A stretch of DNA of 64,000 bases from a virus (IMGVR_UViG_3300013947_000003:1-64000); one strand, 5' to 3'. Numbered from the stretch's first letter, positions 1 to 51,275 are shown. The notes: generated by a model from the letters alone, not told the origin. Made by a program: numbers and translations.

Positions 1-3000
1 AGGAAACTACCCAATACTTAAAGAACATTGCCTTCGAACTTCAAAATCTTATTAAAGGAGAAAACACTAATTTAGAAAATGAAGTGTTTGACTTAACTAA
101 AGGATTTTACTGTAAGTTTTTAGAAGGTGTTTATGGGAGATCCTTTATTCATGTTGGGCAATAGCGTATTTTTAAAGCTGGCAGACAAGTAGTAGTTGCA
201 GAACAAAATGTTAAAATATCAGAACTTTTAGATGCTATTAGTGAGGATGGTTCTGATTTAGGAAGACTTCTTGGGGCTATGTATAATTCTTCAGATGCTA
301 TAAACCAAATAGTATTTAAAGCATATAAAGCTGCAGAAACAGAGGCAGCAGTAAGAACAATATCTTTACATGATTAGTTACGTGCTTTAAAGAAACGTGC
401 AAACTCTATTAATATGTCTAATAGTGAATTTTATGAAGTAGATGAAAAGGGTCATTATACCGGGAATTTTCTTGATTTATATAACTATGGTAAGTATGAA
501 CGAGAATATGATGAAATGAAATTAGAATTTAAAAAGAAATTTGCTGAAAAATATAAAGATTATTATGATGAGCGTGATTTAGCAATTAAATTTTCTACAG
601 AATTTGCAGAAGCCAGACATGAGTTTCTAAGGAAAACACACAATCAAAAAGAACTGCCGGGAGGAAAGATTATATGGGTACTCAAAGATGAATATGTAAA
701 CAAAGAATATTTAAGAAAGTTTGGATATAATGAATTATATGACTATGATGATTTATATACCTAGATTTTCAATAAAGGGCATGAAGGCACTTTATCTGAA
801 AAAGAATAGTTACTTTTTGATATTAAAAAACTAAAAAGAGAACTAGATAGAGAGCTTCCTTAGGGAAGCACTGTTTCTAACAGAGCCCCCCAATTTAAAA
901 CTAGTTTATTTCATAGAATGGGTAATGCCTTTATAGGTAATGATAATATTGTCATTAAAGGTAAAAATGCAATACTGGCAGGATTAAATGCTTGTGGTGC
1001 AACATTTGTAATGAATGCAACTGAGGGGGACTTTGGTAGTGATATGCATAATACAGATGATGACTTTTAGATGATAAAAAATCCTTATTATGATGATTAT
1101 ATGCGCCTTGACAGACTTCCTTTATATGGTATAAAAAAAGTATAGAAGTACACTCAATTTTCTACTGACATTTGGAATGGACTAGCTATGTATGGAAACA
1201 TGGCATATAAATATACAGCAAAAGATAAAATTATAAATGTATTAGAACTAGGAAAGTCAGTATTAGGTAACCGAAAAATAGGCGGATATGAATAGTCTAT
1301 TATTGATGGTGCTAAACTTTTAGCTAAAGATGGTGGAAGATACAAAAAAGAAAGTATTAATCCTAAATTAAACTATTTAGAAGAAACACGTGTTGAAGGA
1401 ACCGGAATAAATACAGATGCTCTGCTTAATTCTGTTGAAACTCCAAATTACTATAAAAGATATTTGGCATTTTTGGATAGATAGATGTACCAACATCCTT
1501 ATATGAAAAAGTCATTACGTGATGTAGCAAAAGTTTATGGACAAAATTGGCTTGCAACAGTATTTGGTGCAGGTGGGGGCAGCAAAACAGTATAGAATAT
1601 TATACATGGTACCAATAAACTAACTGGAATAGTGGCACTTGGAGGTAATGCAGGTGTAGCACTTGTCAGTTTAGCAGACGGTTTAGTTGAAATAATAAAA
1701 GAGGCAGGTGCACATGAAAATTTTACACAAGCATCATTATTAGAAGCTATAACAATTTTTGCAAGAATGAATATAGGTAATACTGCTGCATCTATAGGAC
1801 TAAGTATTCCAATATTAAATGTAGCCTCTAATACTAAATTTAATGGCTCTGATCTCCATTTACTAAATAGATTTTGGGAAATAGCAACAACAGCAGAAGA
1901 CGAAGTAAAAAAATGGAATACACAAAATCTTCCCTCTATTGACGCTCTAGCTATGAAAATGTTGTATTCTGGAATGTCTGCCGGTACTCTGGCTATGAAT
2001 ATGATTCCTGCAATAGCAATGTTAAGAACCAATTATATTTATACGGATAAGGGAGAAAAAATCTCGTTATTTGAGTGGTCTATGAAATATGCTAAATAGA
2101 ACGAAACTACTAGCATTGTTGATAAAAATTTTAAAGTTGCATCTATGAGTATGCCAAAAGGTAATTTTTTTAGAAATGCTGAAGATGCGGTTAGATATGA
2201 CATCTTAAATACAGCTAAGAAACATTTAAATGATTTTATAGAATCAGAAGATGAGGCTGTTAAAGATTTTACATTTAATGAAACACAGTTAGACTTAATA
2301 AGAAACGAGAGTGGAGACTCTTTACGTAAGTTAGATATATAGGAAGATTCTAATGGAGATTATACTGTAAATTTAACAAAAGATTAGGCAAAAGAATTTC
2401 TTAAACATACTGAATTTACAATAGATAAACTAACTTGGGGCGTTAAAGATATGGCGCAATTTAAAACATATATGCGGAGTGTGCTTAATAATATGCATGG
2501 TATGTATGACTTTGACAGCTCAAATGTTGCACAACAGACTATATTAGGCGGACTTTGGGCACATATGAAAGGATATGTTTTTGGATTAGTGCGCAGAAGA
2601 TTTGCTACAAGTGGTTATAATATGTATGCTAAAAGTGATGATGGATTTGGAGGAGTTGTTGAAGGAAGTTTAGTTACAGCCTTTAAAGGGTTGACTTCCA
2701 TATTTTACAACAGGAGAACATTTCTTAAATTTATGCTTGCTACATTTTTAGGTGCAGCCGATATTGCTGGCGGAGGTCTTATTAATTCAGCACTTAATAG
2801 ACTGCATTTTGTAGACAGAGATTATCTTCAGGAATGGGGAACTAATATATTAATTAAAGAGGGGTTTTGTTAGCAAGCATACGCCAATATAAAAAGAACT
2901 ATTGGAGATTATATTTTAGCACTACTTCTAAATATGGCCTTTGGTTATTTTAGTTAGCCGCCAGAAGATGATCCTTATTATGATTTGACATATAACAATC

Positions 3001-3914
3001 CTTGGGAATTTATAAATAGAGGAGCGATTAATGCTAAATATATAACCATCAAACAAGCTATAGAAGAGGCAAATTAGGCATATAAAGAAAATAGACTTCC
3101 AAAATATGAATGTTTTGGACGTACTTATGTTAGAATAACTGATTTAATAATGTATAAATTTGATGAAAATGGCGAATCACCGGAGTTGTGTACTGATGAA
3201 GAGTTACTTAAAAGGTTTGGAACACGACAAAATGTTGAGAGAATAAAGAAAATACGAACCAATGAACTTAGAGGTATAAATAGATATCATGATGTTAGGC
3301 CATTAGACACCAGAGCTTGTATAAGATATATAGTAGGAAGAGTTGCTAATGATAATAGTGCTTTTAATGATATATTCTTTTTAACAAATAAAGAGTCTGC
3401 TACTAGACGTGAATTAAAAGGTTTAGCAAATTTTGGTATGGAAATGATAGCTCCTGCTATGATATCTTAGCTTGGAGAGACTTTTTATATGTATGCTAGA
3501 ACTTATAATTTAATAGGGGATGACTATAAATGGATGCATTCTGTTAAAGCTCTTGATGAGCATATAGATAGTTTTATATAGGATAATTATACAAAAAATG
3601 CTCCGTCTAAAAGCACAATTTTAGAGAATCTAATAACAATGTATAAAAAAGATCCAAATTGGGTTAGTAATTCAATATTCAAAGACGATACAGAAGTTTT
3701 AGATTATATGTTAGATAATAATTTATCAAAGTTGTCAGACTTAAATAGTTTGTTTGATGACACTTTTTACTCTAAAAATACTTATCCATATAAAAAGTAT
3801 GATGCTAAAGTAGATAAACATATACAAAAGATGCTTCCTTTTGTACGTTCAATTTGGACAGCTTATAATGCTAAAGATTCTTTTGATTCATTTATGTTTG
3901 CATCTAGAAAATAA
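1..3914 (+). CDS. large hypothetical late/virion protein, 5'-partial, many in-frame TAG codons read as sense
   Basis: Six track ORFs (414-764 through 3639-3914) share frame 3. I translated 765-1631 by eye and every in-frame stop was TAG, never TAA or TGA. The first TAA (3912-3914) sits just before a hairpin terminator. Confidence 0.75.
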
Positions 3915-3935
3915 TAATATATAAAACAATAATAA

Positions 3936-3970
3936 AGGCGAGGGTTTTCACTCTCGCCTTTATTTTTATT
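3936..3970. terminator. bidirectional rho-independent terminator between convergent genes
   Basis: Stem AGGCGAG / CTCGCCT (3936-3959) has T-runs on both strands. It lies between the TAA at 3912-3914 (+) and the TAA at 3966-3968 (-). Confidence 0.7.
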
Positions 3971-6900
3971 CACATTCTAACATCTATTCCTATGATTGAA
4001 TACTTAACTAATCAAAATTAAATTTTCCGTCTTTTGCTCCAAATTTTTTAGCCAATTCTAATTTTCTTTGAGCATCTGTATTCCCCATTTCAGCATCGAA
4101 TTCTAATGCTGCATAACCTCGTAAGGCATCGGTTGCCGCATCATAAGCATTTTCATGAGTGTCTTCTATTTCACCAAGACCCCCTATTGTTCTTTTGCGT
4201 CTTCTAACTTTTGTAATTTTTTCTTTAGACTCTTTTTGTTTGTCTTCTCCCCCTTCTCTTGTATTTGTAGGCCCTTCAGGTCCTTCCGGACTCTATGGAG
4301 GTGTTGGGGACTCATTGTCGTCTCTTTTAACAAGTGCTTTTTCCTCTTCTAAAAGATCATTAAACTATATAGAGACACTTTTTTCTGCTACTAATACTTC
4401 TCCGGCATCTTTGAATCTAGTTCCTTTATACTCTGTGTATGGAGAAGATTCATTTGCTCTATATAAAAGTGTGCCATTTTCTGTAGCTGCATAGCTTCCC
4501 TATTTAGCATAATTATAATCCGAGAATACGTGGAATATTTTAAGACCATTTCTAGCAAAGTTTGCCTATATACCTTTTGATTCTAAAAACTACTAAGCAA
4601 GCATTTTGTATATAGACACCTGCTACCCCCATCTATTTTTATGCTAATCTATGCCAGGGCTATGATGAGTTTTAAAGTCAAATATTACAATATCTCCTTC
4701 GGCATTATATGCTATTAGATCCAATGTTCCTGCAACAGGTATAGTACCAATTTGTTTTCCATCCTAATATACTGGAAGTACTCCGTTTACAGTAAAACCT
4801 CTAGATTCAAAATGATACCCCTATCTAATAAGATTATCTCTAAAGTTTATTGCTTTATCATATAATTGCTTCCATTCAAATTCTTGAGCAATTGATAACT
4901 AGGCAAAAAGTTCTTGAAGTTCCTAAGTAGATTTTCCATCATATTCTCCATCAAAAAGATTTCTTAAGAATGTATCTACAGCATTACCTACGTGTTCACT
5001 AGGAAGCGCCCAGGGATTATTTTCATCATACCTTTTAGGGTTCCCATCTTTATCTCTTTCTGACAGTCTATCAGCTGCAAGTATAGAGGTTACTCTAGCA
5101 TGTGGATCTTTGCCTTCTCTAGTATAAAATTTTTCATCCTCAGTAAGTTGCCATTGTTTAGACTCTTCTTTTAAAATATTAAAAGCTTTCTAAGCTTCTC
5201 TTTGCGCTGCTTGTTGCTATAATAATTGCTACTAAATATTTTTTCCTTCTAAAGAAACTCCTGTGTCAGCATCTACCAGCCCATTGTTAGTTACCACTGC
5301 ATCTCCTTTTGTAGTATTAGATTCGGCATTATCTGTATTTGTTATTTCAGTTCTAGTTGTGTCTATTATAGGGGCGTTATTTGTTTGCTAAGGGGCAGAT
5401 AGTTGTATAACCGTAACATTAGTTTCAACTTTATTTGAATTTCCTCCTAATAATCCGTCATCATAAACAGTACTTAAATAAGTATGTGCAGCCTTAACAG
5501 CTTCTGCAGATGCTTCAATGTCCCCCATAAATGGAGATAATATTTTATCATCTATCTGCCAATTTACGTCTTTAATTAAAGAACCCCCATTATAGAAGAA
5601 GTTGGCTATTGTCTTTGCTACTTCCTGTGGAGTAAAGGGCTGGTCTGTAACAGTTGCTATTTGTTTATGTTCATTAGTAGCATTAGTTTTTAAAAATATA
5701 TTAACTTGAGGTCCATTTTCTGTAACTTCAACCCCTAATATAAAAGAATAGTCTGTAGGAGAGAAATAAACACCATTGGCATTAACAAATGCTTTTGTAA
5801 ACTATTCTGTAAGTTCTTCTAGTTTTTTAATACGAGATTCTTCATCCATACTTGCAAGCTCATTAGCATTGACAGTTTTAAAGAAAGCATTGAGTCTCTT
5901 TCCTATAAATGTAGCTCTACTATTAAATTCCTATCCTACTTCTCCACCATAAAACTATACATAAGCCTCCGGATTATTAAGTACATCTTCCACAACTTCT
6001 AATAATGTACGTCCTGTATATTTACTTCTAGCTTCATCTATTGCAGTAAAATCGTGTAGTCCTTCATTCTCATTACTACCTTCTATTCTTCTAAAAGAAC
6101 GAGCACGTTGTTTTTTTAACTCTTCTTCAGTTTCTTTTCCAGTACGAGCCTCTCTTATATATTCAGAAATAAACTTATTTCTTGCAGCTTTATATGCCTG
6201 TGTTTGCATCAGCTCATATTTGGTCTTACCTTTATATTCAGGGTGCTACTGTAGTATTTCATTTATAGATCTATCTGAAGATGGGGTATAACCTTCTCCT
6301 AAAGCTATAACTGTTCTAGTCTATGATACTTTTTTGATATCACTTGTTATTGGAGTATTATCTTCATCTTGTATTAATTCGTCTGTTTCTTTAATATTTT
6401 GTCTGATATAAAAAGATCTTCCGGAACCATAAGCATTTCTTGCCTATACTTTGGTATTTCTAGTAGAACTTAAAGTAGAATTAAAGGAACTAGGCATTAT
6501 TGCAATAGGCTAAAAGTTTTTAGGACCGTCTTTTGTTTCAAGTACTACTTTACCATTTTTATCCTCAACAACTGCAACCAATGGGGCATCTAATTCCTAA
6601 ATATGCTCCTCTCGTCTTTCTGTTATAGCGCTGGGAGAGTAATAATATACTGTTTTACCCTGTATAGTTGCAGCATGGTCCTATAAATATTTTTCAACTT
6701 CATTGTCTTCCCAATACCTTACTAATGATTCAGAAGCATTCCCTGAACTAATGTATTCTTTCATAGATAAACCTACCATTGTAGAAGAATTGGCCAATCT
6801 AGATAATTCCTACAAATTATCTTTTGTATTAAACCATCTTTTGTTGTTTATATTAACTTGAGAATCTTCTATGTCTAACTATCTATCTATTGCTGCACTT

Positions 6901-9900
6901 CTTAGGTATTTCTACAACTTTTCCCCAACTTTCTATGATAAAGTCTTCTTTGTCTCCTATTTAGTGTTTGCTGCTTTTATAGACTCTTGGGTTTTCTTAT
7001 AATTATCATAGTCGTTTAATATACCTAAAAGAACTTCACCATTTTTGGCTTCATTAGTATTTTCATCATTATTAGAAATGAGGGAGTTTGCCTACTTTCT
7101 TAATGCATTTAAAAAGTCAGCTTCAGACTCATATTCAAACTGCATTCCTCTAAATATATCAAAAAGAACTTGCCTCTGCTCATCGCTAACTTTGCCATTT
7201 GAGTTTATCTTATTATATATAAAAGTCTATGCCTATGAAAGCATACTAAATTCATCTTCAGATGTAGGTTCATTTTTTTTCTTCTTTTCCTCTTCCTTCT
7301 TCTTCTAATTTTCTTTTCTTTTCTTCCTATTCTCTCTTTGTTTTTGCTTTTTTGACTTAGATTCCTAAACAACTTCTTCTGACTCTTTAGCTGTTATCGG
7401 CTTTGCAACTTCTTTTGATGCTTCTGCTTCTTTAATACGTCTTTCAATTTCCTCCTAATAGGCATCCATAACATTATTATAGATGGACATAATTTCTTCT
7501 ACAGAATCAAAACTCATTCTTTCATTTTCATCTTTGGTTTCCTAATCTATTTCATCTATAAATTCTTGGATTAAAAATTTTCCTGTCTCTTTATTAACTC
7601 CTTGCAAAGCATCTATTACAGCATCTCTGTCTGTAAGTGATACTCCCTTACTTCTTAAAAGCTGTAATGCTGAAAATAAAAGTTCTTGTTGCCTATCATC
7701 AATAGAACGTAATTTTGGGTCATTAACAATGAGTCTCATCATAGTCAACTAATCATCTCTGCCTTCAGAATATCTCTCATAGAACTCAGGACTCATATCA
7801 CGTAAAACACGTTGTAAAGTTCTATAATCAACATCATTACTGTCTTCTGCCTCTTCAACTGCAGCAACCCAATCATCATAGTTCTTTATCCTGGCTATAG
7901 ACTCATATCTAAGCTGCCTATATCTTGCTCGTGCAATACGTGCTTCTCTAGTTCCCAATTCGCTAACTATAGTAGGATTTTTAAGAGCCAATGCATACTC
8001 TACCATAGATCTACTTATATTGTCTAGTAATACAGCAGAATCCTTAACAATATCATCAAACTCAGGATCTAAAAGTCTGCCCTAAGCTTTAACATTTTCT
8101 ATAATTCTTGCCTATTCTTCAGAATAATTGGTTAAATCTGAATTTAATATTAGTGCTCTTTGTCTTGCAGAAAGGTTCATTATCTCCTACTCATTAAGAA
8201 CAATTTCGTCACTATTAGCAGACTTTCTGTTTTTAAGTGTATTTACTCGTTTATTTATATTAGAGATCTCATCTTCAGTTTTTCTTATATCTTCTTTTAT
8301 TTTTGAAGTGTCTTTTCTGTCTGCTTTTTTCTTAGAATTTTCCTGTTTTAATTCTTCTCTAAGAGATTTTAGTTTTTCTTGTTTTTTTTCTAATTCTCTT
8401 CCCTACTATGCAACCTTCGCATCTACTATAGACTTGCTGCCATATTTAACAAGGTCATCAATTTGTTCTTGAGTACTTACTCCGTCGTGTCTGCTATTTT
8501 GAAATTCTTCAGACTTAGCAATCTAACTAATTCTATCCTCTAATTGCTTATGACGTTGTTTAAAATTTTCATTGGAAAGTTTCCCATAGATTAATCCTGC
8601 TGCCTAATCTGGTGTAAGCACGCCCAATTGTTTTTCTAAAGACTCTTTTATATCATCAATTTGGTCTAGCATTTTTGAGACATAAACAGCACGATCTTTA
8701 GCTAATTTTAGCTTATCTTCTCTAGACATTGACGGGTCTGCTATAGACTATACTAATGCCTCTTGCTATTCTTCTGTTAGATTATCTATATCAGTCATAT
8801 TTTTAAGCAGCTACATAGTACTGTTATAATATGCAGTACCTTTTAACTATGAAATCATAAGTGCTGAATGAACAAGACCTCTAAATAATGCATCTCGTCT
8901 TTCCATACCTGCACTATAATCTTCTGCTATTTGTATGATTTCACCTGCAGAAAGTACTCCCTATATAGATTTAAACATTTCAAGGCGCTTTTCATCTTCA
9001 TTTATCCAATCCTCTATAGCCTTAGCCTGCGAAATTCTATCCCATGCTCTTTGCTAGACACTTTTATAGTGCATTACAGCATTACTTTGAAAAGGAATTG
9101 CTCTTGCAATAGTCTTTAAAATGCTTTCCTTTTTGGCAGTACCATCATCATTTTTAATAGTGTTTCCATCTTTATCTGTGGCGTATTTTCTATTCCAAAA
9201 CTTTATAGTAGTTTCATATTTACCATCTTTTCCTCTAATAAGATTTCCATCTTTATCAGTTTTATAAGACATATATTTACCCCTAAGCCCGGTGAAGGGA
9301 GAGGGCATTAAAGAGCCTAATGCCCCATAGAATGCCTATTTCCAAGATTCAGGATCTACCATAGCATTAGTTGCAGCCTCACGTGCTGCTGCCCATTCTA
9401 TACCAAAAGTTTCTCCAATCATAGGAGTACTACCATTATAACGTTCTTTCATAAATTGGTGAATATTAGCCATTGCCCCCCCTTCTGCTGCAGCATCTGT
9501 AACAGACTGGAAATATTCTTCAGCACCCTCAGGTATAGCAACTCCTAAAGTGCCATTAATAAAACGTGTAAACGGCTAATACCACAAAGTTCGAGGTTTT
9601 ACAGTGGCTTTTCCTGTTCCTTCAACTTCTGTAGCTACAAAACGTTCTTTTGTAGATATAAATTTACCAAGTTTTGGGCTAACTTTATCTATTCTCCTAG
9701 CAATTGCATTTCTGGCATTACGTAGTGCTTCCTAAGTCCGCTTCATTGTCCACATTTCTGCAGTCATTGTGTGGAACAAACCATTAATCACAGAATTCAT
9801 CATAAGGTTCTATGTGCCTGCAGTTGCAGCAGCATCTTCAATTTGTGCTTTAACATCCTTAAACATATTATAATATGTAGGATCATCCCCACCATTAACA

Positions 9901-12028: not shown

Positions 12029-13207
12029 TTAAGACACTCCTTCAAGGTCCTTCCCTTTTTGTGTTCTGCCACTATTATCTTTATTACCATTGTTGTTAGT
12101 CTCTTTTGTCTGAGGCATTAAAAGGGGGTATAGTACACCTTTAGCAGTATCGAAATAATAAGACTGCATAATATTATTTTTAGGACCGTACATTCTCATA
12201 TAGTACTTATATTCGTCATCTCCGTTAGCGGTAACTCTTCCAGTAGGCTTTTTAAAATAAATGTTATTCATATCAGTACCATTTCTTGCTGCTATATTAG
12301 ATACAAATGTATTAGGAGAGGGAGTTACTGTACTTAAATCTAAAAGCCAAGACTATGGTTGATTTTGTTCAAACTATGCTCTACTTAATGCTAACTGAGC
12401 AGACTGCATACTACGTGAGAATGTGGGATCTTCAGAATAAGAAATACTTTGTGCATATGCAGTGTTATCAAGGAATCCTGAAATTATATTCTATAAAGCT
12501 TTGTTTTGATCTTCTTTATTTAACTGACTAACTCCAAATTCTTCAAGTATCCTGTCTTTAGCTTTAACAAACTCTGAATTTTTATTTGCAGTATTAATTA
12601 ACTACTGTAACTCTTCAGAAGTATAACCCCTTCTTTGCATATTTTCAAAGAAATACCCTTTAAGATCTCCAGTTGCTTTCTACATAGTATGTATAAAATG
12701 TCTGCCAGATTCAGAGTTGGCAAATCCTAAAGCTGCTGTATATAGATCTTCTCCTTTAACAGTATTATAAGTTGAACTGCTTTTTGCCATATCAGAAAGT
12801 GACATTGTTCCATAATCCTTATCAAAATATACTCCTCTTTTCCCCTAAGCTCTTAATAGTCTTTGCTCCTTAGCTAACTCTTCTCTTTTCCGTGCTAGTT
12901 CTTCTAAAGGCTTAAAAGTTCCTGCATAATCTAATCTTGCTTGATTTATATCCCGAACAACTCTTCTAGTCTAACCATTAGCCATAGCATCTGCATAACT
13001 TAAAAGTCTATTTTTATAGTCCTACAACTAAGCATATTGTACAGGGTCTCTATACTAATCAATTAACGTTCCTAATTTAGAGGAAGCCTCAAGAAGTTTT
13101 TCCTGTTTGTCTAAATTCTTTTCATATGATTCTATGTATTTACCATAAGGTTTATATAAATCATCAAATGAAAGAGGTTTAAAATTATTGTCTATTACTA
13201 AATACAT
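12029..13207 (-). CDS. hypothetical virion protein (392 aa, about 13 in-frame TAG)
   Basis: Translated fully by eye from ATG 13205-13207 to TAA 12029-12031. Reading TAG as Q gives sensible contexts (LIDQYRDP, ELQQLINT, SRAQFEQNQPQSW). Confidence 0.75.
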
Positions 13208-13209
13208 AA

Positions 13210-16129: not shown

Positions 16130-16168
16130 CTTAAAAAATAATAGGGATATAAGTGTTACCTATATCCC
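16130..16168 (-). terminator. rho-independent terminator
   Basis: On the minus strand, stem GGGATATA / TATATCCC is followed by TATTATTTTTT. It is nested within an outer inverted repeat AAATAACTTAA / TTAAGTTATTT. Confidence 0.7.
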
Positions 16169-16175
16169 CATTAAG

Positions 16176-37658: not shown

Positions 37659-38051
37659 TTAGGCCTTCTTGTCTTTGTTTTTGTTTTTGCCATTTTCATC
37701 TTTTTTAGGCTAGCTCATAATTCTAAGCTAGCAGGTTAAATCAGTACATATTTGAGTAGTTAACTATATTACCGCAGTTTTAAGATCTTCAAGTTCTCTC
37801 TTTAAATTATCATTATCCTATCTTAAAGTGACAATTTCAATACGAAGTTCCTTGTTTTCCTATAGTGCAGTATCCAATCTTTCTTTATTGTCGTTACTTA
37901 ACTTTTCATAAAACTCTAAAGATGCTTCCATATTACTTATTACTGAATTATCTACTTCACTATTATATTTCTTTCTTGCTAAAAACCATGATAACCAGCT
38001 TCCTGCTGTAGTAGAAACTACTCCAATTACTGCTATAATAATTTCAGTCAT
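37659..38051 (-). CDS. N-terminal TM plus coiled-coil protein (holin or i-spanin-like, 130 aa)
   Basis: Track ORF 37860-38051 (TM segment IIIAVIGVVSTTAGSWLSWFLA) continues through TAG codons to TAA 37659-37661. Confidence 0.5.
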
Positions 38052-40719: not shown

Positions 40720-41502
40720 TTAATCTATTAAGGTTACTATTACTTTATTCAAACTTGCATTTGCTTCAATTTCAGTCACACTATAAAACTCTACCTTAAT
40801 CCTTTTTTGTATATGTTCTACACTACTACCAACATCAATAGTAGTTTCTGTAATATATGTAGGTCTTAATTCCTAACTATAATTAGTTTTAAAAGCAAAG
40901 TTTGTAGAAGTAAAATCTAACTTACAAGGAACTCCTGTTTGTGTATTACCACTTAAAGTATTTGTTATGATTATATATGGAACATGATAATAATAAATTG
41001 CTTTTCCCACAGCTTCCCATTTATTATTGCTGGTAATAGTGGGTGTTATAGCAATATCACGTGTGATGCTAACTGTATCCATAGAAAGTTCATGAAGGTT
41101 ATCAATCTAAATTACAGGTATAGCCAAAGAAGACTCAGTGCCTTTATAAGTAGTAAAGTTGTCACTAAGCACATTAACACTGTTATTAAGGGTAGTAACG
41201 GTATTATTTACAGTAGTAACAGTATTATTTACAGAAGTAATAGACTCTTTAATATTGTCCGTCTCACTTTGAAGAGTTACAATATCTTCTTTTATACCTG
41301 ATATATAGTCAGCCGTATCATCCGCATTATTTACAGACCTCCAATTTCCGTCTACAAATTGATACAGTTTACTCCCAGGATATTCACTTTTATCCTCTTC
41401 AGGATTTTGTAAAGATTCAACGTATTTACCTGCTTTTATCCACAAAACATTATGTTCTTCAGGAGCTTTTTTTGAATATACTATATCTTTATATTTTATC
41501 AT
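40720..41502 (-). CDS. tail fibre-like protein (260 aa)
   Basis: Track ORFs 41107-41502 and 40873-41082 are in the same frame and joined by TAG. It begins MIKYKDIVYSKKAPEEHNVLWIKAGK. The stop is TAA 40720-40722. Confidence 0.6.
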
Positions 41503-43904
41503 TTACTATTAGTATTAGTAGGTTTATTTATTTGCTTTAATTTAAGAGCCTCATCGGCTTTATTTTTACGTTTAGTTTCAGCTAATTTATCTTTTTCTAA
41601 TTCCTATTTAGAATTAAACTATCTAATTTTTTCGTCAAGTTCAGCTTTTGCTTGTTCCGGATCTTCTTTATAGAAATTCTAATTAGCCATAGATTCAGCA
41701 TTTATTTCTGCAACAAGTATTCTGGTTTCATTGTCTCTTTGATTTATGGAATCTTTAAGTTCCATTTCTGCCTATTTTTGCTGCGCTTCCTGCTGTATTT
41801 GTTGCTGTGCCAATTCTTGTTGCTGTTGCTATTGTTGCTATGCTCTCTATAACATGTCTTCTTCATTCTTTTGGACCATTCTTTGTTTCTCGGCTAATGA
41901 AGTACTATTGTATAATTTCATAATAGTAGAGAAGTTAAGTGTTTGATTCTATAGGGCTGCCTATGCTAGCATATCTAACTTTTGTTTAAGCTCCTGCATA
42001 CCATCACTATTATCAACAACTAAACCATAGTCAGCTTCAGCAAACTCATCACCATCAATTTCAGTAACTTTCATAGTATTATCTGCTAATAAATACTAGA
42101 ACTTCTTACTTCTTCCTTTAAGTGCAATTTTTGCAGTTTCTAAAAAGCATTCTAAAGCTCTTCTTTTAACATCGTCATGGACCATAAACAGCCATTCAGT
42201 AATATGAGAAGACTGTAAAGTAGCCCTTTCCACACCACCAACAGTTTCTCTATTACTAATCTAGCCTTCTCTTTGTCTAGAAATGCCTGCAACATCAGAC
42301 ATTTCCTACTTAATATACTCCAATAGATTTACATATTGCTATATGGTATTACCAACATCTGCGTTAAATGCTCCCTGTTGTGCATTATTTAAAGCCCCTG
42401 AAAGCTTTCCCATAGCTGCTCCTGAATTGCCTTCTTTAAAACTATCAGAAACAACAATACCGGAAGTTTTAGCAAAATACATCCACTTTTCTATATCCCA
42501 TCCAGTAGGAACTTTGGCTAAATCTAGATTAATTAGAACACCCCAATTTCTAGCAAGTAGTTTATTAAGTCTGTCGTGTATAACATCATATAAGTAATTA
42601 TATGATTTCATCTTATCAACTAAAGAAAATGGTTTTGAATCATTAAGATTATAAACAGATCCTACAATACCAAAATGGCATCTTGAAGGATTGGAGAGTC
42701 TATTATACTAAACTACCCTAGGACGCATATTTACATAAATATCTGTGCCTATTTTAGTTCCTTCCCAAGCTTCATTTATATAAAAAACTGTTTCTTCCTC
42801 ACCCTCTTCTGTTTTTGTTATATAAGTTTCCGGATAAAAATTAAATACTTCTTCACCTGTTTCTGGATCATAAGATTTAACTTTTTTTATTTTTCTTCTA
42901 GATTTCCAATAAACTCTAAGAACCCTTATATTACCATTCATATCAAAAGGAAGAAGCGAATCATTAACTCCATCAAGTTCTCCTGTAATATTAGAAAAAA
43001 AATCAGTTTGGGAATTAAATGTTTCACCTAACATAGAACCATTTATAAATCCATATCTTTCATCTATATTATCCATAGAATCAGTAGATCCTTGCCCCAA
43101 ATTGTCAGGCATTTCTTCTATATACTCTCTGTCCTTTTCTGACAATACATCATAATAAGTATCTATTATCTTCCCGGGGCTCCAATAATCCTCAAGTATT
43201 ATAATATCTGCATCTTCTAATCTATTAGAATATCCAGATCTAAATGCGCGTATTTTTAAAGGGTTTATTCTTTCAATGACGGGTTCTCCACCAACAATAT
43301 CACATTGATATATTTCTTCACCAACAGTCATTCCGTCCATAAATCCTTGGTTAAATATCAAAGGCATGTTAAGTTCCTTAACATAGTGGTGTAATAATGA
43401 ATTGGCCCTTATTTCTCTCATATCTTGCCATTCTAGAGAAAAATAATCTCCCATCTATTGAATGCGTTGATTAAACTCTTCCTCAGAAGAGGAAGTATCC
43501 TAAACAGCTTTTTGAAGTTCCTAATATATTTGATCCCTTTTATTGTTTTCTATTTCAGATATAGAATTAGGATTTGTAATAACAACTCTATAATCAAATA
43601 CTCTGGCAGATTCTTCGCCTCTCAGAACATCTAGTTTGCTATTCATGATAGGATAGTGTTGTATTTTATCAGGAATAAATCCAGCCTGAAGATGCTCGGG
43701 ATTTAATATCATCATAAGGTCACTCATATGAAGTTTACCATTAATTAAATCATAATTAATCTTCTTATGAATAACACTGTTCCTAACAGGTGAATAGTTG
43801 AAAAATGTCTTAGAGTCTGCCCAATCACAATGAAGTTTACGCCATTTTTTATTCTTTTTATTAAATGGCAACTATTGTGGGGGTAATTTAACAAAATTAC
43901 TCAT
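41499..43904 (-). CDS. portal protein (801 aa)
   Basis: Three track ORFs share one frame. Its size and its position after TerL fit a portal. It has a C-terminal poly-Q tract made of TAG, CAA and CAG (41772-41855). The TGA overlaps the next ATG (ATGA). Confidence 0.75.
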
Positions 43905-43983: not shown

Positions 43984-46221
43984 TTATAAAGTATTAAGTT
44001 TAAACTGTCTATAATTTTTTTCAAAGAATGGGTCTATCTCAAGTCCTTTAGGTTTTACCTAAGCTCTTCGCATATCCCCTTGATATAATATCATCTTTTC
44101 TTCTCTAAAGAGCATTAACTAAACTAATGACATCAATCTATCAACATTTATATCAGGGTTAAATAATATAAGTTCTTTTAGTAAAGCTCTATTTTTAATA
44201 AATGATAAATTAGGCACAGTATAAGAAACTTCATGACCATTCTATTCTTCATTTATAGTAACAGGCTTTAATAACCAATCTCTAATTAAAGTTAGTCCAA
44301 AGTTTTTAATAGGTACTGTTGCCTAAACTCCCTTACTAGAATTACCAAAATTAGAGGACTTTATCAACTATTTATTCCTTAAATATTCAGGTGTATCAGC
44401 CAACATGTACAAACTATTAGTTCTACTAAAGTAAGAAAATGTGTTCTTTTTATTACTTTCATAGAGTAATTGACAATTATAAAATAAACATATCTTTCTA
44501 GCTATCTCATTTAAATCATCTACAAACATAGGTCTGCCTGTGTACTCTGCAACTATTCTATCAGTCCATAGGTCCATTACAAACAAAGAACCTAAAGACA
44601 TTGTATTAGATTCATCATTTTCATAATTATCTAGAGATGCTATATACCTATCCTATGGAATCTTACCTTGTACTTCCTAAGGCATTTCAAATATTTCTAA
44701 AGCTCCGGTACTTTTATTATCCTTTAATGGGAAGTCTCTAATAGGTTTATCATAACTAGGCTAGAACTCTACTTCATGTTTTTTATTAAATACAAGATTT
44801 CCTATATAAGTATCATCGTAGAAATTAGGGTTATTATCAATTTCATTTAATCTAGCTGTTAATTCTGTTATAGGAAATATATTGCCTTTAGCTCTCTGAA
44901 TAGCTTCCTACGGTGTTATAGGAATTTCAGCAATACGTTTAGTAATAGCATTAATATTAGTTGAATTATATTTAACAAGATACCTATCTTTTAGTATTTG
45001 TACTAATGCCTTAATAACATCGCTATTACCATCTTTATCATAACAATCAGCCCTATTTAAATATCCAGGAAAAAAGTATGTAAACTATTTCCTTCCCTAT
45101 CCCTCTTTATCATAAATATTATCAATCCCTAAAACATTGTAGCCTTTAGGATTATACATAAGTTCCTGCATAGAACTAAAGTCAGAGTCATTATCACCTG
45201 CTGTACCCCAAGCAGCAATAATTCCCCACACACTATCACCATCTTCTACAGAAGGCCTTAATACCTACCATAGATTTAATAACCTAGGGAACGTGCCACT
45301 CTCCTCGATTATATATAAAACTCCTCTAGAACCTCTAAGTTTAGATTCATCATCTTTAGAAGTAATACCCATAACACTATTTTCTGTACCCATTCTAACA
45401 CCTGTTTCAACATCTAAATAGCCCATAGTCCATTGCATATTCTAAAGACTAGATGTTAATCTTCTAGAGGGAAATTGAGTATTACTAGCACAGAAATCTA
45501 TATAATACTAAAACATGTCTAGAATCTAATTAGCCCCTTGTATATATTTTCTTTCAGATGCAGTTACGACACACTATACTTTCTTATTTACTTCGTAACC
45601 TTCTCCTAATATAAATCTTTTAGCTAACAAAGAAGCACCACAAAAAGACTTACCACAACCACGTCTTGATAGTTCCATATAATGATGTCCTCGATCTCTA
45701 CACTATTGTAAAAAATGAAATTTATAATAGTGCCCTTCCCAAAATAATGGCATACCTACAGAACGTATTGTTTTACCTTTTGCATCTTTTTTTATAAGCT
45801 ACATAGGGCAGTAGTTTAAAAAGAAATACATATCACCGGTAATCCACTCACCATCAGATGGCCTTACATACCCTTCATAGCATCTTCTAATTTCCTCTCT
45901 AATCCATTTACCAAATTCACTATTAGGATTAGCATTAGGTTTTAAATCTGTTAGTCTTCCTGTTTTCTAAAAATGTATTGCTGTGGGTCTAAAATAATCC
46001 GTATCTTCTAATATGTGGGGTTTTGTTATGTCAATAATGATTTTACCTTCTTCATCTCTAGGAAGATCTTTAGCATAGGGTCTATCAGCAGAAATTAGCT
46101 TTTTTATATAAGGAACATTATTAATATAATCAAAGAACTGCTCCTTAACTTCTTCATTCATAGAATCAAGCAGTTCCTAAGTTATACTAGTCTAGCATTT
46201 ATTTAATCGAAAGTTCTCCAT
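43984..46221 (-). CDS. terL: terminase large subunit (745 aa)
   Basis: Track ORFs 45967-46161 and 44368-44601 share one frame. Contains a Walker A-like motif RRGCGKSF. It has about 20 in-frame TAG codons. The start is ATG 46221 (46161 is an alternative) and the stop is TAA 43984-43986. Confidence 0.8.
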
Positions 46222-47023: not shown

Positions 47024-47052
47024 AATTAAAAAAGCCTCTCAACTGAGAGGCT
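47024..47052 (-). terminator. rho-independent terminator
   Basis: An AGCCTCTC-AGTT-GAGAGGCT hairpin is followed by TTTTTAATT on the minus strand, directly after the TAA at 47060. Confidence 0.8.
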
Positions 47053-47059
47053 TTGTCCT

Positions 47060-47470
47060 TTAAAGAATAATGTCTTTATTAGGATGGATAATTGAAGTAT
47101 CTTCAGTTTCCTCCCATTCTTCTACTACAAATTCTATATCTCTGTCCTACAGTAGTAAACAGGGCTTATTATCAATTACAACAATATCAAATCTATATTC
47201 AATAACCGGATTGTCTGATATAATACCGTCTTTAAGACTGCCGTCTTTATGCTTTTTGATTGCAAATCTGTTTGGGTTTATTGAGACAAGATCTCCTACT
47301 TTAATGCCTCTAACAGAATCTCCAACAGCTAATACTTTTTGATACTCTTTTACAGTACCTGCTTTTTTTGTAACATCTATAATATTTCCTATTTTACCAT
47401 CTTCCTCATATACATCCATAGTTGTAACAAGGGCAGTAAACATAGGTTTAATTTTTTTTACTATCAACAT
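47060..47470 (-). CDS. GroES/gp31-like co-chaperonin (136 aa with one TAG readthrough)
   Basis: Shows a GroES-like pattern: IKPMFTALVTT...KEYQKVLAVGDSVRGIKVGDLV. The track ORF stops at a TAG, and 29 further codons then end at a TAA directly before a strong terminator. Confidence 0.55.
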
Positions 47471-47690
47471 ATGCTTTTATTCTTTTATATTTATCATAAG
47501 GGCAAGCTAACTTACCTAATGATGGAATATTAAAACTAGTAGTTAATTTAGAAAACTCTTCCTCTGATAAGTTTTCTTTTAAAGGTAACTCTTCTATGTG
47601 TTTTCTAATACATAGCCAAAAGGCTTTATAGGTTTTCTCCACCACATTTACTGGTAAATTTAACTCTTTTGCTATCTCTTCTATAGTCAT
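47448..47690 (-). CDS. small HTH-like protein
   Basis: Track ORF with no TAG and a TAA stop. The start overlaps the upstream TGA. Confidence 0.5.
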   Translation of the reverse strand: MTIEEIAKELNLPVNVVEKTYKAFWLCIRKHIEELPLKENLSEEEFSKLTTSFNIPSLGKLACPYDKYKRIKAYVDSKKN

Positions 47691-48070
47691 TCTGTAAAAT
47701 CAAATAACAGCATAAACTTAAAATTACCCTCGTCTTTTGTAATATTAGGTATGAATTTAGGATTTATTTTATCATCTATAATGATCTTCTTATCCCTAAG
47801 TTTAGACATTATAACCTGAAAATGAGAACTTGTAATACCACAATCTTCTCTTACAGCCTTTTTAATCTCCTCACTCATTAATACCCTATTAAGTAATTCC
47901 TCACTTGTAATATTGAGGCTTAATTGATACCTGTGTTTTACAAATGAGGAAATTACTTCAATCTCTCTATTTGTGAGATTATGAAAGGGCTTAAGAAACT
48001 CAAACCAATATTTAAAGAACTTTTCTTTTGTAGTGGGAATCCTAACAACATTGTTAATCTTCCCTAACAT
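47687..48070 (-). CDS. putative winged-helix DNA-binding protein
   Basis: Track ORF containing the segment GITSSHFQVIMSKLRDKKII. Confidence 0.45.
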   Translation of the reverse strand: MLGKINNVVRIPTTKEKFFKYWFEFLKPFHNLTNREIEVISSFVKHRYQLSLNITSEELLNRVLMSEEIKKAVREDCGITSSHFQVIMSKLRDKKIIIDDKINPKFIPNITKDEGNFKFMLLFDFTE

Positions 48071-48071
48071 A

Positions 48072-48329
48072 TTATTCTTCTGCTTGAGTTTCTTCTTTTA
48101 CAGGAGTCATAATCTCAACAATCTCCTTAACACACTTATCTACAAATTCCTTATCAAAGCTAATTTCATTTTCAATTACCTTAAAAAGATAATCAAGACG
48201 CTTAAAAAGAGTAGTAGTGCTAAATTGTTGAAGTTTATTATATAATGCATTATTATCCTGCTGAAGCTGTTCTGCAACTGCTTTAAGTTGTTCGTACGTA
48301 AGCTCCTTTACTTCTTTATTATCTTCCAT
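48072..48329 (-). CDS. hypothetical coiled-coil protein
   Basis: Track ORF with a TAA stop. Confidence 0.5.
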   Translation of the reverse strand: MEDNKEVKELTYEQLKAVAEQLQQDNNALYNKLQQFSTTTLFKRLDYLFKVIENEISFDKEFVDKCVKEIVEIMTPVKEETQAEE

Positions 48330-48723: not shown

Positions 48724-48902
48724 TTCTTTATTTTACCGCCTGAAGCCATCTTCATAGCATTGGCTCTTCTTTCTAATGCTGCTGCTTGTGCTTTAGCGGC
48801 CTTAATAGCAGCATTCTTTCTACTAGGACTATTCATAATTTCCTAGTATTGTGCTAATGTATGAGCATCACTTTCAGCTTGCCATTTTTTATCAATTTTC
48901 AT
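48720..48902 (-). CDS. small hypothetical protein (60 aa)
   Basis: Translated by eye with one TAG. Both ends form ATGA-type overlaps. Confidence 0.4.
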
Positions 48903-49081
48903 CTTTTTACACTTATTTTATTAAGTTCATCATAGAAATTTAGTACAAACTACTCATTTTCTAGTGAGTGTATTTCTATAATTTTATCTATAAAGTTAAG
49001 ATCGTCTAGTATAGCCAGCATGGCATGTTTAAGATATTCAATACTGGGCTTATTAAAATTATCAAGAATAGTCTGTTCCAT
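48899..49081 (-). CDS. small hypothetical protein (60 aa)
   Basis: Translated by eye with one TAG. The ATG is at 49079-49081. Confidence 0.4.
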
Positions 49082-49095
49082 AATATTAAATTTAG

Positions 49096-49168
49096 TCGCC
49101 CCACTCAGAGTCGAACTGAGATCTTCAGATTTAGAGTCTGTAGTAATAAACCGTTATACTATAGGGCA
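49096..49168 (-). tRNA. suppressor tRNA, anticodon CUA (reads UAG)
   Basis: Folded by hand. Acceptor is UGCCCUA / UGGGGCG and the T arm is CUCAG-UUCGACU-CUGAG. The anticodon stem is CAGA / UCUG with loop CUCUAAA, which puts C-U-A at positions 34-36. Total length is 73 nt. Confidence 0.8.
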
Positions 49169-49172: not shown

Positions 49173-49406
49173 TTAAAATATATATTTATACATTAGTATA
49201 TAAAAAGCAACTGCTAAGAACTGCCCTACTATGCCCCCTGCTAATGTCATTAAAATATCCAGTTCGTCAAATTTATTTCCATATTGCTTGTCTTTAAATT
49301 CCATTCCTATGGCCAAGCCTAATACAAATAATATTGTGCCAATAAATCCTGCAGGTATTGCATAAAAGAAATGTTTGTTCCTGTTACTTTCCGTAAACCA
49401 ACTCAT
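49173..49406 (-). CDS. small membrane protein (77 aa)
   Basis: Track ORF with two hydrophobic segments, lying between tRNA genes. Confidence 0.5.
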   Translation of the reverse strand: MSWFTESNRNKHFFYAIPAGFIGTILFVLGLAIGMEFKDKQYGNKFDELDILMTLAGGIVGQFLAVAFYILMYKYIF

Positions 49407-49421
49407 AATATTTATTTTTTG

Positions 49422-49486
49422 CGGTTCCTAGTAGATTCGAACTACTATCTTCCATTTCAGGAGTAATACCATTATACTAAGGAACC
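49422..49486 (-). pseudogene. truncated tRNA-like element (65 nt)
   Basis: It has a perfect acceptor (GGUUCCU / AGGAACC) and T arm (AGUAG-UUCGAAU-CUACU). Only about 31 nt lie between them, and no canonical 5-bp/7-nt anticodon arm can be drawn. Confidence 0.4.
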
Positions 49487-49566
49487 AAGCTCCCTCCTTC
49501 CGTCTTCTCAGATTAAGGGAGGTTATTGTACAAATTAACAACAATTAAACATCTTTCCACCGTGTG

Positions 49567-49638
49567 TCTCCCCAGAAAGACTCGAACTTTCAATGTGGGA
49601 TTAGAAATCCCAAGTTATATCCCTTTAACTATGGGGAG
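49567..49638 (-). tRNA. tRNA-Arg (anticodon UCU)
   Basis: Hand fold: acceptor CUCCCCA / UGGGGAG, D stem GUUA / UAAC, anticodon stem UGGGA / UCCCA with loop UUUCUAA, and T arm GAAAG-UUCGAGU-CUUUC. Confidence 0.8.
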
Positions 49639-49704
49639 CTTAATCAGAGTATTAAGATGCCACAAAGTAAAGTATAATATTTTAATTATACAAATATTTT
49701 AACA

Positions 49705-49890
49705 TTATTTAAGATTATTATTTATTTCATTGCTTAATTGTTTCATTTGTTCTTGGGTATTATCTATTCCGCCCCCATCAGCAAATTTATTATAAGTTTC
49801 TTTAATACTATTTACATCCCTAAGACCACTCTGAACACCAAGACGTATTATAATAGCCCTATCTCTCATTGGTAAGTTTTCCCAAGCCAT
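49705..49890 (-). CDS. small hypothetical protein
   Basis: Track ORF with a TAA stop. Confidence 0.45.
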   Translation of the reverse strand: MAWENLPMRDRAIIIRLGVQSGLRDVNSIKETYNKFADGGGIDNTQEQMKQLSNEINNNLK

Positions 49891-49941
49891 ATATATATTA
49901 AAATTAAAGGGTATAGGGTTAAAGCCCCATACCCTTATATA

Positions 49942-50514
49942 TTATTGAATATTTACAAAATCTATCATTAAAAATTCTTTATCAGTGCCTTCCTCTATAT
50001 TCTTTTTATTATTAAACTTAGCATATATCCAAGGCCACCAATCATCTAAATAAGTCCCTGTACATGGAGTACCTAGAGTATTGTTAGATGAATACTTATC
50101 CTCATAAGTAGGATTATGTTTAAATTCATAAACTACTGTCCAAGACTCTTTGTCAATACCTCCACAGAACTTTACTCTAGGATACTTTTTTACTAAAGTA
50201 TCACAGTAATGCTGAAAGAGTTGTATATCCTCTTCATCTAATTTCCTTTCTAGAACTAGTCTAACATAACAATTTCTTTTCTTATTAAGGAAGTCTAAGA
50301 ATGTTTCTATATCTCCTTTATAAGCCATAAGACCATGCCTTATTTCTACATTAAAATCCCTATCAAAACTAATCCTAAAATCAAAAAATCTAATACCTAG
50401 CTTATACTGCTCCTCTATAGATTTACTTTGACACCTTGCTACAAATCTAAAAGGATATAGATACCATTTCTTAGGAGGTAAATATGTTAGAGAATTGTGT
50501 GATGCTATGATCAT
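49942..50514 (-). CDS. PLC-like phosphodiesterase-fold protein (weak call)
   Basis: Track ORF. The N-terminal segment ASHNSLTY resembles the PI-PLC X-domain catalytic His motif. It has no TAG. Confidence 0.35.
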   Translation of the reverse strand: MIIASHNSLTYLPPKKWYLYPFRFVARCQSKSIEEQYKLGIRFFDFRISFDRDFNVEIRHGLMAYKGDIETFLDFLNKKRNCYVRLVLERKLDEEDIQLFQHYCDTLVKKYPRVKFCGGIDKESWTVVYEFKHNPTYEDKYSSNNTLGTPCTGTYLDDWWPWIYAKFNNKKNIEEGTDKEFLMIDFVNIQ

Positions 50515-51275
50515 CTTATAATAATATTTTTTGTAGAAAATCCTTCTTTTATTTGTACTTTAGGAAGTATTGTAACTGTATAATCATACCCGATGCCATT
50601 ACATATAGCATTTGGATTGGTTTCTGTAATATAGAATGTTTCTCTTCCTGTAGTATAATTTGCTAGATCCTAGCATTCTGTACTTATACTATAACCTCCA
50701 GAACTTTCTGTAAACTGATCAGATGTGGTTAAAGTTGCTACAGTACTTAGTACACCTATATTAAAATCTGGGGAATATGAGTTATAATATAAAAATGAAT
50801 ATTTATTACTAAATAATTCAGTCCTACTTAATATTAAATTTGGAGAAGTGTCTTTTTGGTAGTCTAGAAGATTTTTATAAGAATCATTATGATCTGGTAC
50901 CCCTATATAAACATTTGCTGTAAGTTTTACTCCTTCAGGGAAATCATTTCTTAATACCTGTATACCCCGATATATTCTAAAATTATCACCTTCTACATTG
51001 CCTGCCAGCATCCCCGAATAATTGTCAGCAAAGGGAAGATTTGAAGTGTCAGTACTTGGAATAACAGTTTTAAAGTAATCACCTATTACAACAGTATATA
51101 TATCATCTTTATCTATATAATAAACAGGATCAGTAATAGCAAAATTGGCTTTTGGGCTATCATCTCCAATACTATCAAGAACTTCCCAATACTTCAAATT
51201 ATTCTTCTGCTCTTCAAGACTACCACCACCAGAGACAATAGTCTTACCATTTCTTTTACCTATAATATGTTTCAT
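50511..51275 (-). CDS. hypothetical protein (254 aa), first gene of the minus-strand block
   Basis: Track ORF 50670-51275 continues through one TAG to TGA 50511-50513, which overlaps the next ATG (AGATGATC). Confidence 0.6.

Follow-up and report, generated by a model that had tools for sequence, protein, structure and literature searches.

Glutamine decoding of TAG in the late genes of a crAss-like phage, with a suppressor transfer RNA at the code boundary and a small protein gene beside it

Among the crAss-like phages, reassignment of TAG to glutamine or of TGA to tryptophan affects, for the most part, the late genes only, and many of the genomes concerned carry suppressor transfer RNAs (tRNAs); late-gene-only TAG-to-glutamine recoding with such tRNAs has been described for groups beta, delta and zeta, with code switches at short phylogenetic distance and with recoding combined with introns and inteins (Yutin et al., 2021, PMC7886860). 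According to one proposal (Borges et al., bioRxiv 10.1101/2021.08.26.457843), recoding sets the time at which late and lysis genes are expressed, and code 15 has been validated at the peptide level by metaproteomics (Peters et al., 2022, PMC9523058). The present analysis concerns a stretch of 64,000 nucleotides of viral DNA, IMGVR_UViG_3300013947_000003:1-64000 (hereafter the window, that is, the whole stretch at its full length), and, within it, a late gene block (3-49081) whose reading frames are interrupted by TAG, a suppressor tRNA with anticodon CUA at the end of that block (49095-49168, minus strand), and the gene for a 60-amino-acid protein that adjoins this tRNA.

To judge from its genes, the window is about two thirds of the genome of a virulent crAss-like phage (Crassvirales, Steigviridae/Asinivirinae-like, "beta" group). 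The genes for the large terminase (TerL), the portal and the major capsid protein (MCP), together with the giant RNA-polymerase genes, are homologous to and syntenic with those of classified members; the placement in the group is based on this homology and synteny. The closest GenBank phages are cr116_1 (Pamirivirus faecium, MT774389), cr128_1 and Kolpuevirus "frurule" (OQ198718), all of the Steigviridae, Asinivirinae, the best match being cr116_1 with 74% nucleotide identity over TerL and portal; the genome of the window is itself absent from the GenBank phage set. The host of frurule is Bacteroides cellulosilyticus. These three resemble the window in the colinear order of the late block, in their TerL (46-74% identical) and portal (65-70%) proteins and in the position of the tRNA array, but differ from it in using the standard code, with no TAG in TerL or portal. 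The nearest public relative is an IMG/VR contig of 94 kilobases (kb), IMGVR_UViG_3300045988_177920 (loci L049 and L064), which is likewise recoded, with 17 TAGs in its TerL; its locus L049 is about 88% identical in nucleotides to, and colinear with, positions 41.4-51.5 kb of the window.

From the recoded crAss-like phages already published nothing essential separates the window: they too confine TAG to late structural, lysis and RNA-polymerase genes and keep their replication genes in the standard code, they bring their own CUA suppressor tRNA, recoded and standard genomes alternate among them, and endonuclease-bearing insertions occur in their conserved genes. The recoding found here is one already described for beta-group crAss-like phages, of which the window is one more case. 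The original prediction for this DNA had taken TAG-to-glutamine recoding to be established in crAss-like phages, in agreement with the literature, and both the patchy recoding among the TerL relatives and a holin-like gene rich in TAG (five of its six glutamine-type codons), described below, fit the published picture (PMC7886860; bioRxiv 10.1101/2021.08.26.457843; PMC9523058).

Over positions 1-51275, simple greedy gene calling, from which all the densities given here are taken, yields a coding density of 55% under table 11 (100 open reading frames, ORFs, of median length 78 amino acids) and of 95% when TAG is read as sense (50 genes, median 196 amino acids), against 60% in a control in which TGA is the sense codon; in the early region, 51276-64000, density is about 77% whichever code is applied. 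Stop-to-stop ORFs of at least 300 amino acids number 2 in the window under the standard code and 15 with TAG as sense, the longest of these reaching 2686, 1589, 1304, 982, 813 and 746 amino acids, and making TGA sense leaves the stop-to-stop lengths as they were. The 16205 codons of the late block include 331 in-frame TAGs beside 324 CAA and 118 CAG, in other words TAG takes a 43% share of the glutamine-type codons, while not one in-frame TAA or TGA lies inside the homology-anchored late genes.

These results uphold what the original prediction had asserted, namely that the late block can be translated only with TAG as a sense codon and that its interruptions are TAG and never TAA or TGA, for in each interval which it named the covering ORFs have TAA or TGA at their ends and no other interruption than TAG; calling with a table-15-like code, compared with table 11, lengthened the genes and raised the density, and single homologue alignments cross the TAGs, which do not fall at protein termini. 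The sizes it had given for the read-through products (TerL 745, portal 801 and MCP 504 amino acids) were recovered, the MCP at about 504 amino acids from five pieces, and terminator hairpins were located directly after all three of the gene ends for which it had reported them (stops at 3966, 16176 and 47060; hairpins at 3931-3964, 16173-16139 on the minus strand and 47054-47031 on the minus strand). The window has a GC content of 32%, and between about 51.3 and 4 kb a long block of genes lies on the minus strand, facing a single convergent gene on the plus strand (3-3914). The late genes and their terminators, apart from the MCP gene, are as follows.

3-3914, plus strand: late gene, homologous to the frurule "RNA-polymerase subunit" and open at the window start, with 17-18 in-frame TAGs.
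3931-3964, no strand assigned: hairpin of 15 base pairs separating two convergent genes, probably a bidirectional terminator.
3966-12014, minus strand: giant late gene of 2682 amino acids, homologue of a frurule "RNA-polymerase subunit", with 81 in-frame TAGs.
12029-16068, minus strand: two late genes homologous to crAss genes 48 and 49 (392 amino acids with 10 TAGs; 952 amino acids with 36 TAGs).
16176-20912, minus strand: homologue of the "stabilization protein", 1578 amino acids, with 36 TAGs; a terminator hairpin follows it (16139-16173).
20912-27496, minus strand: run of structural genes (tail tubular, IHF-like, gene 74/75 homologues), with 1-10 TAGs per gene.
37659-38051, minus strand: homologue of the cr116_1 "lysis regulatory protein/holin", the TAG-rich gene mentioned above.
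41499-43904, minus strand: portal protein, 801 amino acids, with 18 TAGs and no in-frame TAA or TGA.
43984-46221, minus strand: TerL, 745 amino acids, with 21 TAGs and no in-frame TAA or TGA.
47031-47054, minus strand: terminator hairpin after the GroES-like gene (47060-47470).
47448-48329, minus strand: three small TAG-free genes inside the late block (292 codons; no TAG observed, 6.0 expected, P=0.003).

The last three genes may be needed before the suppressor is available. Read through, TerL matches phrog_6681 over residues 95-725 and the portal matches phrog_6547 over residues 6-799; the BLASTP alignments of the two with cr116_1, 736 and 808 amino acids long, span all of their TAGs. When all TAG-sense ORFs were compared by BLASTP with the ORFs of cr116_1 and frurule the late block proved colinear, the set comprising both giant "RNA polymerase subunit" genes, those for the stabilization, tail tubular and IHF-like proteins, genes 74-77, and the holin-like and GroES-like genes; every window ORF of at least 250 amino acids has a crAss structural or replication homologue or some other assignment.

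As for the amino acid that TAG encodes, glutamine occupies 29% of the TAG-aligned positions in the BLASTP alignments with cr116_1 and 18% in those with frurule, against a background of about 3%, and when 431 aligned cells are scored with BLOSUM62 glutamine comes first (Q 472), ahead of E (240) and K (98). At the positions of the window's TerL TAGs, 65% of the codons of standard-code relatives are CAA or CAG. The strongest evidence is the comparison with L049: 47 window TAGs correspond there to TAG 28 times, CAA 12, CAG 6 and TAC once, so that 46 of the 47 remain TAG or a glutamine codon, and in the opposite direction the TAGs of L049 which are not TAG in the window are CAA (14), CAG (5), GAA (3) or TAT (1). 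Of 97 glutamine-type sites common to both, 37 (38%) have TAG in one and CAA or CAG in the other, and since this equals the rate of difference at fourfold-degenerate sites (37%), TAG behaves as a neutral synonym of CAA and CAG in the late genes. Second codon positions differ between window and L049 by 1.3% and third positions by 28%, which shows strong purifying selection on the read-through proteins. The nucleotide context of the sense TAGs has no clear bias at -1 or +4 relative to CAA and CAG.

The suppressor tRNA, and with it the mechanism, did not figure in the original prediction. It lies at the right end of the late block, in the following setting, to which the early replication genes are added.

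48899-49081, minus strand: ORF of 60 amino acids, member of a helical-hairpin family, starting 13 nucleotides after the suppressor tRNA, with one TAG.
49095-49168, minus strand: suppressor tRNA, anticodon CUA, found by ARAGORN and Rfam (52.4 bits), with U1.G72 and A73.
49173-49406, minus strand: TAG-free ORF of 77 amino acids with long hydrophobic stretches, probably encoding a membrane protein, with the tRNA-like element on one side and the suppressor tRNA on the other.
49422-49486, minus strand: tRNA-like element with perfect acceptor, D and T arms and a 10-nucleotide stub instead of the anticodon arm.
49566-49638, minus strand: tRNA-Arg(UCU), found by ARAGORN and Rfam.
49705-51275, minus strand: same-strand genes upstream of the suppressor tRNA, readable under either code, with no confirmed sense TAG; a terminator hairpin lies at 49907-49936.
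60813-63737, plus strand: TAG-free early replication genes (SF2 helicase, a 197-amino-acid protein, DnaB-like helicase), of sizes that match cr116_1.

The confirmed sense TAGs end at this tRNA, the first ORF after it having a TAG that is conserved in L049, and the four same-strand genes upstream of it (49173-51275, 582 codons) contain a single ambiguous TAG where 11.9 would be expected (P=9e-5); this one, codon 202 of 50511-51275, is TAC in L049. The predicted suppressor tRNA marks the code boundary, which on these counts moves to about 49.1 kb: of the extent 1-51275 that had been proposed for the recoding, the late block stands, and the right boundary had been set some 2 kb too far to the right. 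In the early region 1394 codons hold no TAG, against 28 expected, and four early ORFs end in TAG, one of them overlapped by 8 nucleotides by the ATG of the next gene.

Recoding and a CUA tRNA co-occur among relatives as well. In-frame TAGs occur in the TerL of 6 of 42 IMG/VR relatives, and a CUA tRNA was found in 4 of the 4 recoded loci with enough flank, and in none of the standard-code loci. Eight standard-code relatives carry a tRNA-Gln(UUG) in the corresponding tRNA array, and in cr116_1 it stands where the window has its tRNA(CUA); this tRNA-Gln has U1-A72 and A73, to be compared with U1.G72 and A73 in the suppressor. As a possible ancestor of the suppressor it has in common with it U1, a weak 1:72 pair and A73, but overall identity between the two is only 55-67%.

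From these elements a genome of two codes would emerge, and we consider it very probable: early genes compatible with the standard code, and a late block in which TAG stands for glutamine and is decoded by the phage's own tRNA(CUA). A host with the standard code would read correctly the early genes of the plus strand, as well as those few of the minus strand that lie upstream of 49.17 kb, and in the block of structural, packaging, lysis and virion RNA-polymerase genes TAG serves as a third glutamine codon, the CUA tRNA presumably being charged by the glutamine-charging machinery of the host. The late proteins would not be completed until the suppressor tRNA had accumulated, which would couple late translation to the phage programme, in the sense of Borges et al. 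The tRNA would be the first element of a short unit whose second is the 60-amino-acid helical protein, and this protein may help suppression. Several points weigh against such a scheme: (i) translation of the late genes, and expression and charging of the tRNA, are predictions from sequence for this genome; (ii) about a third of the genome (some 30 kb) lies beyond the window; (iii) that TAG is a true stop in the early genes is an inference, and in the case of the TAG-ending ORF at 60431-60820 the homology check gave no detectable homologue in cr116_1; (iv) for 44% of its products to be full-length, the gene with 81 TAGs requires each of these codons to be read through at a rate of at least 99%; and (v) no gene for a release factor or an aminoacyl-tRNA synthetase was found among the window genes examined, so that none of these genes accounts for the outcompeting of the release factor 1 (RF1) of the host at 81 TAGs in one gene. 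The immediate neighbours of the suppressor tRNA in particular, where a gene for RF1, RF2 or a synthetase was looked for, have no Pfam, PHROG or NCBIfam match.

Other readings of the TAGs have been weighed against the same data. The interruptions might be damage, that is, pseudogenes of a decaying or defective phage, or errors of sequencing or assembly, as the ORFs of some 80 amino acids into which table 11 breaks the block would lead one to think; yet TAG accounts for every one of the 331 interruptions and the frame holds throughout, and in an independent assembly, 88% identical, 28 of 47 TAGs are kept as TAG and the rest are glutamine codons bar one TAC. The codon-exchange data and the strong purifying selection visible in the codon positions refute damage, whose probability we put as next to nil. 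TAG might also stand for another amino acid, for example pyrrolysine, tyrosine, glutamate or lysine, a proposal that can draw on the label "tRNA-Pyl" given by ARAGORN (a label it gives to any CUA tRNA), on the single TAG that is TAC in L049, and on E and K being the next commonest aligned residues. Against it, CAA or CAG is found in 18 of the 19 non-identical cases between window and L049, the score of Q is twice that of E, and U1, the weak 1:72 pair and A73 of the suppressor resemble the tRNA-Gln(UUG) of standard-code relatives; for pyrrolysine in particular, TAG exchanges with CAA and CAG, and no pylS or pylBCD domain occurs among the scanned window proteins. An amino acid other than glutamine is in our estimation very improbable.

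A different objection accepts glutamine and denies the switch in time: host or infected cell would read TAG as glutamine from the start, the whole genome being in code 15. Genes free of TAG do indeed fit either code, and the early TAG stops are the inference noted above, but the phage has its own suppressor tRNA, placed at the boundary, TAG is absent from early codons where many would be expected, and four early ORFs end at TAG, one with the overlapping start already described. Moreover, the cultured relative Kolpuevirus frurule, whose host is known, has no in-frame TAG in TerL or portal, and 36 of the 42 TerL relatives have none in TerL. A genome in code 15 throughout has, we believe, a slim chance of being right, and the two-code genome with a late block decoded by the phage tRNA is the reading retained in what follows.

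The gene order of the boundary (tRNA-Arg, tRNA-like element, ORF, suppressor tRNA, small ORF) is the same in L049, but no element has diverged more between the two than the suppressor tRNA, which is only 72% identical (L049 3053-3124); several double changes affect its anticodon stem, and in L049 its T loop is atypical. A copy 93% identical to that of the window lies in an unrelated 1.3-kb metagenome contig (L104 502-577), and because this identity exceeds that at the orthologous site, the comparison suggests that the suppressor tRNA allele has been replaced or transferred. The tRNA-like element together with some 75 nucleotides upstream of it (within 49415-49565) has 97% identity with L049 where 88% is the local average; the tRNA-Arg beside it has 8 differences, several of them compensatory changes in stems. 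In IMG/VR the exact pattern of the tRNA-like element was found only in the contig to which L049 belongs.

The T-arm and acceptor sequence CTCAGTTCGANTCTGAGTGGGGC was considered as a suppressor-specific signature spread horizontally, and was rejected. Although CUA tRNAs account for 10 of its 12 matches in IMG/VR, the 2 matches in 185,579 bacterial and archaeal genomes are a tRNA-Phe and a tRNA-Trp, and in metagenomes CUA tRNAs make up 12-13 of 41 matches, tRNA-Gln 7 and other types 18. Identity outside the pattern is 0.63-0.72 for other suppressors, 0.56-0.62 for tRNA-Gln(CUG) and 0.50-0.57 for other types; since most metagenome matches are not CUA tRNAs and identity to other tRNAs is nearly equal, the motif is not specific.

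The small ORF was first noticed in L104, where it lies beside the suppressor tRNA between flanks unrelated to the window. Among loci selected by the tRNA it occurs 7-16 nucleotides after it in 10 distinct contigs, and a profile search of the family gathered 382 proteins, none with a Pfam domain or an informative name. When eleven clusters were picked by the protein alone, the end of a canonical CUA tRNA lay a short way upstream of the ORF in nine; eight of these have a spacing of 13-21 nucleotides, and in P0116, the remaining one, the gene as called overlaps the tRNA. The other two (L119, L121) have at that distance only a T arm and the 3′ half of an acceptor, preceded by a conserved core of about 90 nucleotides: in L119 1290-1480 and L121 1375-1540 the core, GACTTGGAAGCAA...GGCGCAAGCA...GTGCAGCGTGAACGACT, is followed by variable hairpins and then by the tRNA T arm and acceptor 3′ half. 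ARAGORN with its intron option detects no tRNA there and Rfam no family, and the element may be a non-canonical suppressor. A partial match to the RAGATH-1 hammerhead was also seen at L119 3119-3162.

The family hidden Markov model, scanned over six-frame translations of 123 loci, matches 41, among them L040 and L058 (recoded crAss relatives) and Lak megaphages, and all of these but one either carry a CUA tRNA or were retrieved through the small protein, L119-L122 having only the tRNA 3′ half; the exception is L071, whose contig ends within the tRNA and leaves the anticodon unreadable. Some 75 loci without a CUA tRNA, among them more than 30 standard-code relatives of the window phage, gave no match. 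Counted by locus, the small ORF is present/absent in 23/7 loci with a CUA tRNA versus 1/75 without (P=4e-16 by Fisher's test, some of the loci not being independent of one another). Where it follows the tRNA at 7-21 nucleotides, it does so in Steigviridae crAss-like phages, in phages of about 180 kb, in smaller unclassified phage contigs and in other contigs, while in Lak megaphages a weak member of the family is found within 0.5 kb of the second CUA tRNA.

The C-terminal motif of the protein, NEQ[FYW][VF][LI][DN][FWY]xDxLNxxSV, is encoded by 15 distinct nucleotide versions, and because across these serine is specified by both AGT and TCN, and leucine by both TTA and CTN, protein-level selection is evident from the codons. 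AlphaFold2 predicts with confidence a hairpin of two helices (pLDDT 86). Searches of Pfam, PHROG and NCBIfam gave no match to the ORF; with its fold, Foldseek found 0 matches in PDB and, in BFVD, only matches of E=2.6 or worse; two members compared with GenBank phages by tblastn gave no match, and no description of the protein was found in the literature searched. The idea that a conserved in-frame TAG makes the small ORF dependent on its own suppressor was discarded, the TAG being present only in the window and L049 and replaced by CAA or CAG in other members; the ORF of L017 has a different, non-conserved TAG near its C-terminus.

It is possible, though we hold it only tentatively, that the amber-suppressor tRNA and this helical-hairpin protein of about 50 amino acids form a mobile two-gene cassette, in which the protein is a dedicated accessory factor that brings suppression to the efficiency which genes with dozens of TAGs demand; it might antagonize the RF1 of the host, or aid the charging or delivery of the CUA tRNA. 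The alternative, to which we give about an even chance, is that the ORF is unrelated to decoding: a hitch-hiker, a homing-related gene, or a mere neighbour in a mobile tRNA cassette driven by GIY-YIG endonucleases. Such an endonuclease directly follows the CUA tRNA, at 13-31 nucleotides, in L007 (Lak-A2), L013, L092, L058, L015, L105 and L008; in the Lak phages, L058, L015 and L105 it holds the slot instead of the small ORF, and in L008 the GIY-YIG domain is fused in frame to the small ORF itself; the suppressor allele, moreover, appears mobile or replaceable, as the comparison of L104 with L049 indicates. These genes at the slot after the tRNA offer a route for mobility of the cassette. Nevertheless, tRNA and small ORF stay together where every other neighbour has changed, and they do so in five or more unrelated phage backbones, some without an endonuclease nearby, the spacing is held at 7-21 nucleotides, and the C-terminal helix is under clear protein-level selection.

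Three known arrangements invite comparison with this unit. In Jade phages a "code change module" consisting of suppressor tRNA, tryptophanyl-tRNA synthetase and RF1 lies upstream of the lysis cassette (Borges et al., bioRxiv 10.1101/2021.08.26.457843); there too a unit compatible with the standard code and containing a suppressor tRNA stands directly upstream of recoded genes, but the reassignment is TGA to tryptophan and the partners are recognizable translation factors, whereas the partner of the window tRNA is a protein of 50-60 amino acids with no recognizable domain. The best GenBank match to the window suppressor is a tRNA of a Lak megaphage (Prevotella phage Lak-A2, MK250019), also CUA, with the same acceptor stem and T arm and with a weak member of the small-ORF family within 0.5 kb; its backbone is unrelated, and it has two CUA tRNAs with a GIY-YIG endonuclease between them. 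SegB is a free-standing GIY-YIG endonuclease in the tRNA gene cluster of phage T4, and homing endonuclease genes that neighbour the tRNA genes of phages can cause the tRNA region to be inherited preferentially. A system of that type could explain a mobile suppressor cassette, but the window differs in that its endonucleases lie in the MCP gene and none beside the suppressor tRNA.

The MCP gene is made up as follows:

27574-32668, minus strand: MCP gene in five coding pieces (32668-~32615, 31783-~31463, 30639-30436, 29376-28738 and 27879-27574), with 6 TAGs.
31844-32488, minus strand: GIY-YIG endonuclease ORF in intervening sequence 1, with no TAG.
30747-31355, minus strand: GIY-YIG endonuclease ORF in intervening sequence 2, with 10 TAGs, among the highest TAG densities of the late block.
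29489-30265, minus strand: GIY-YIG endonuclease ORF in intervening sequence 3, with one TAG.
28022-28648, minus strand: HNH_3 endonuclease ORF in intervening sequence 4, with one TAG.

The MCP of frurule, with which the five pieces align over the full length, has 507 amino acids, from which net alignment gaps remove 3 to give the total of the pieces. Each of the four insertions, of about 0.8-1.1 kb, holds an endonuclease ORF (three GIY-YIG, one HNH_3), which, together with the order of the exons, is consistent with putative introns; the MCP of cr116_1 is likewise annotated as split. Covariance models of group I introns gave no Rfam match at E<=1 in 27400-32800, and the assignment of the insertions to that class was dropped. 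Insertions of about 1 kb are found at three sites in the TerL of relatives (L049 6927-7945; L044, L045 and L047 at residue ~192; L051 at residue ~588), unlike the TerL of the window, which is uninterrupted.

Two further features of the early region were noted. Between 52000 and 58000 GC content rises to 39-43% against about 30% elsewhere, in an island crowded with short plus-strand ORFs that have no Pfam match and, for PHROG, matches to two families of unknown function in a single ORF; a DNA search against GenBank phages recovered only the flanks (a 156-nucleotide unannotated stretch at 51.3-51.5 kb and a tRNA-Leu at 58.2 kb). At 59364-59431 on the plus strand Rfam (44.9 bits), and not ARAGORN, recognizes a fifth tRNA, of 68 nucleotides, whose T loop is short and whose anticodon loop is unusual.

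In summary, the late block has to be called with TAG as glutamine, as otherwise two thirds of the window would be mis-annotated as fragments of some 80 amino acids, and to the recoding known in these phages the window adds clean quantitative evidence that TAG is a neutral glutamine synonym in the late genes and is excluded from the early ones. What looks new, and is a lead beyond known recoding, is the small protein beside the suppressor tRNA: conserved, physically linked and unannotated, it is a candidate for how phages overcome RF1 at up to 81 TAGs per gene, and it may bear on why suppressor tRNAs escape detection in most recoded phages. If its proposed role is true, the small protein would be a beacon for hidden non-canonical suppressors in that majority of recoded phages where no suppressor tRNA is detectable.

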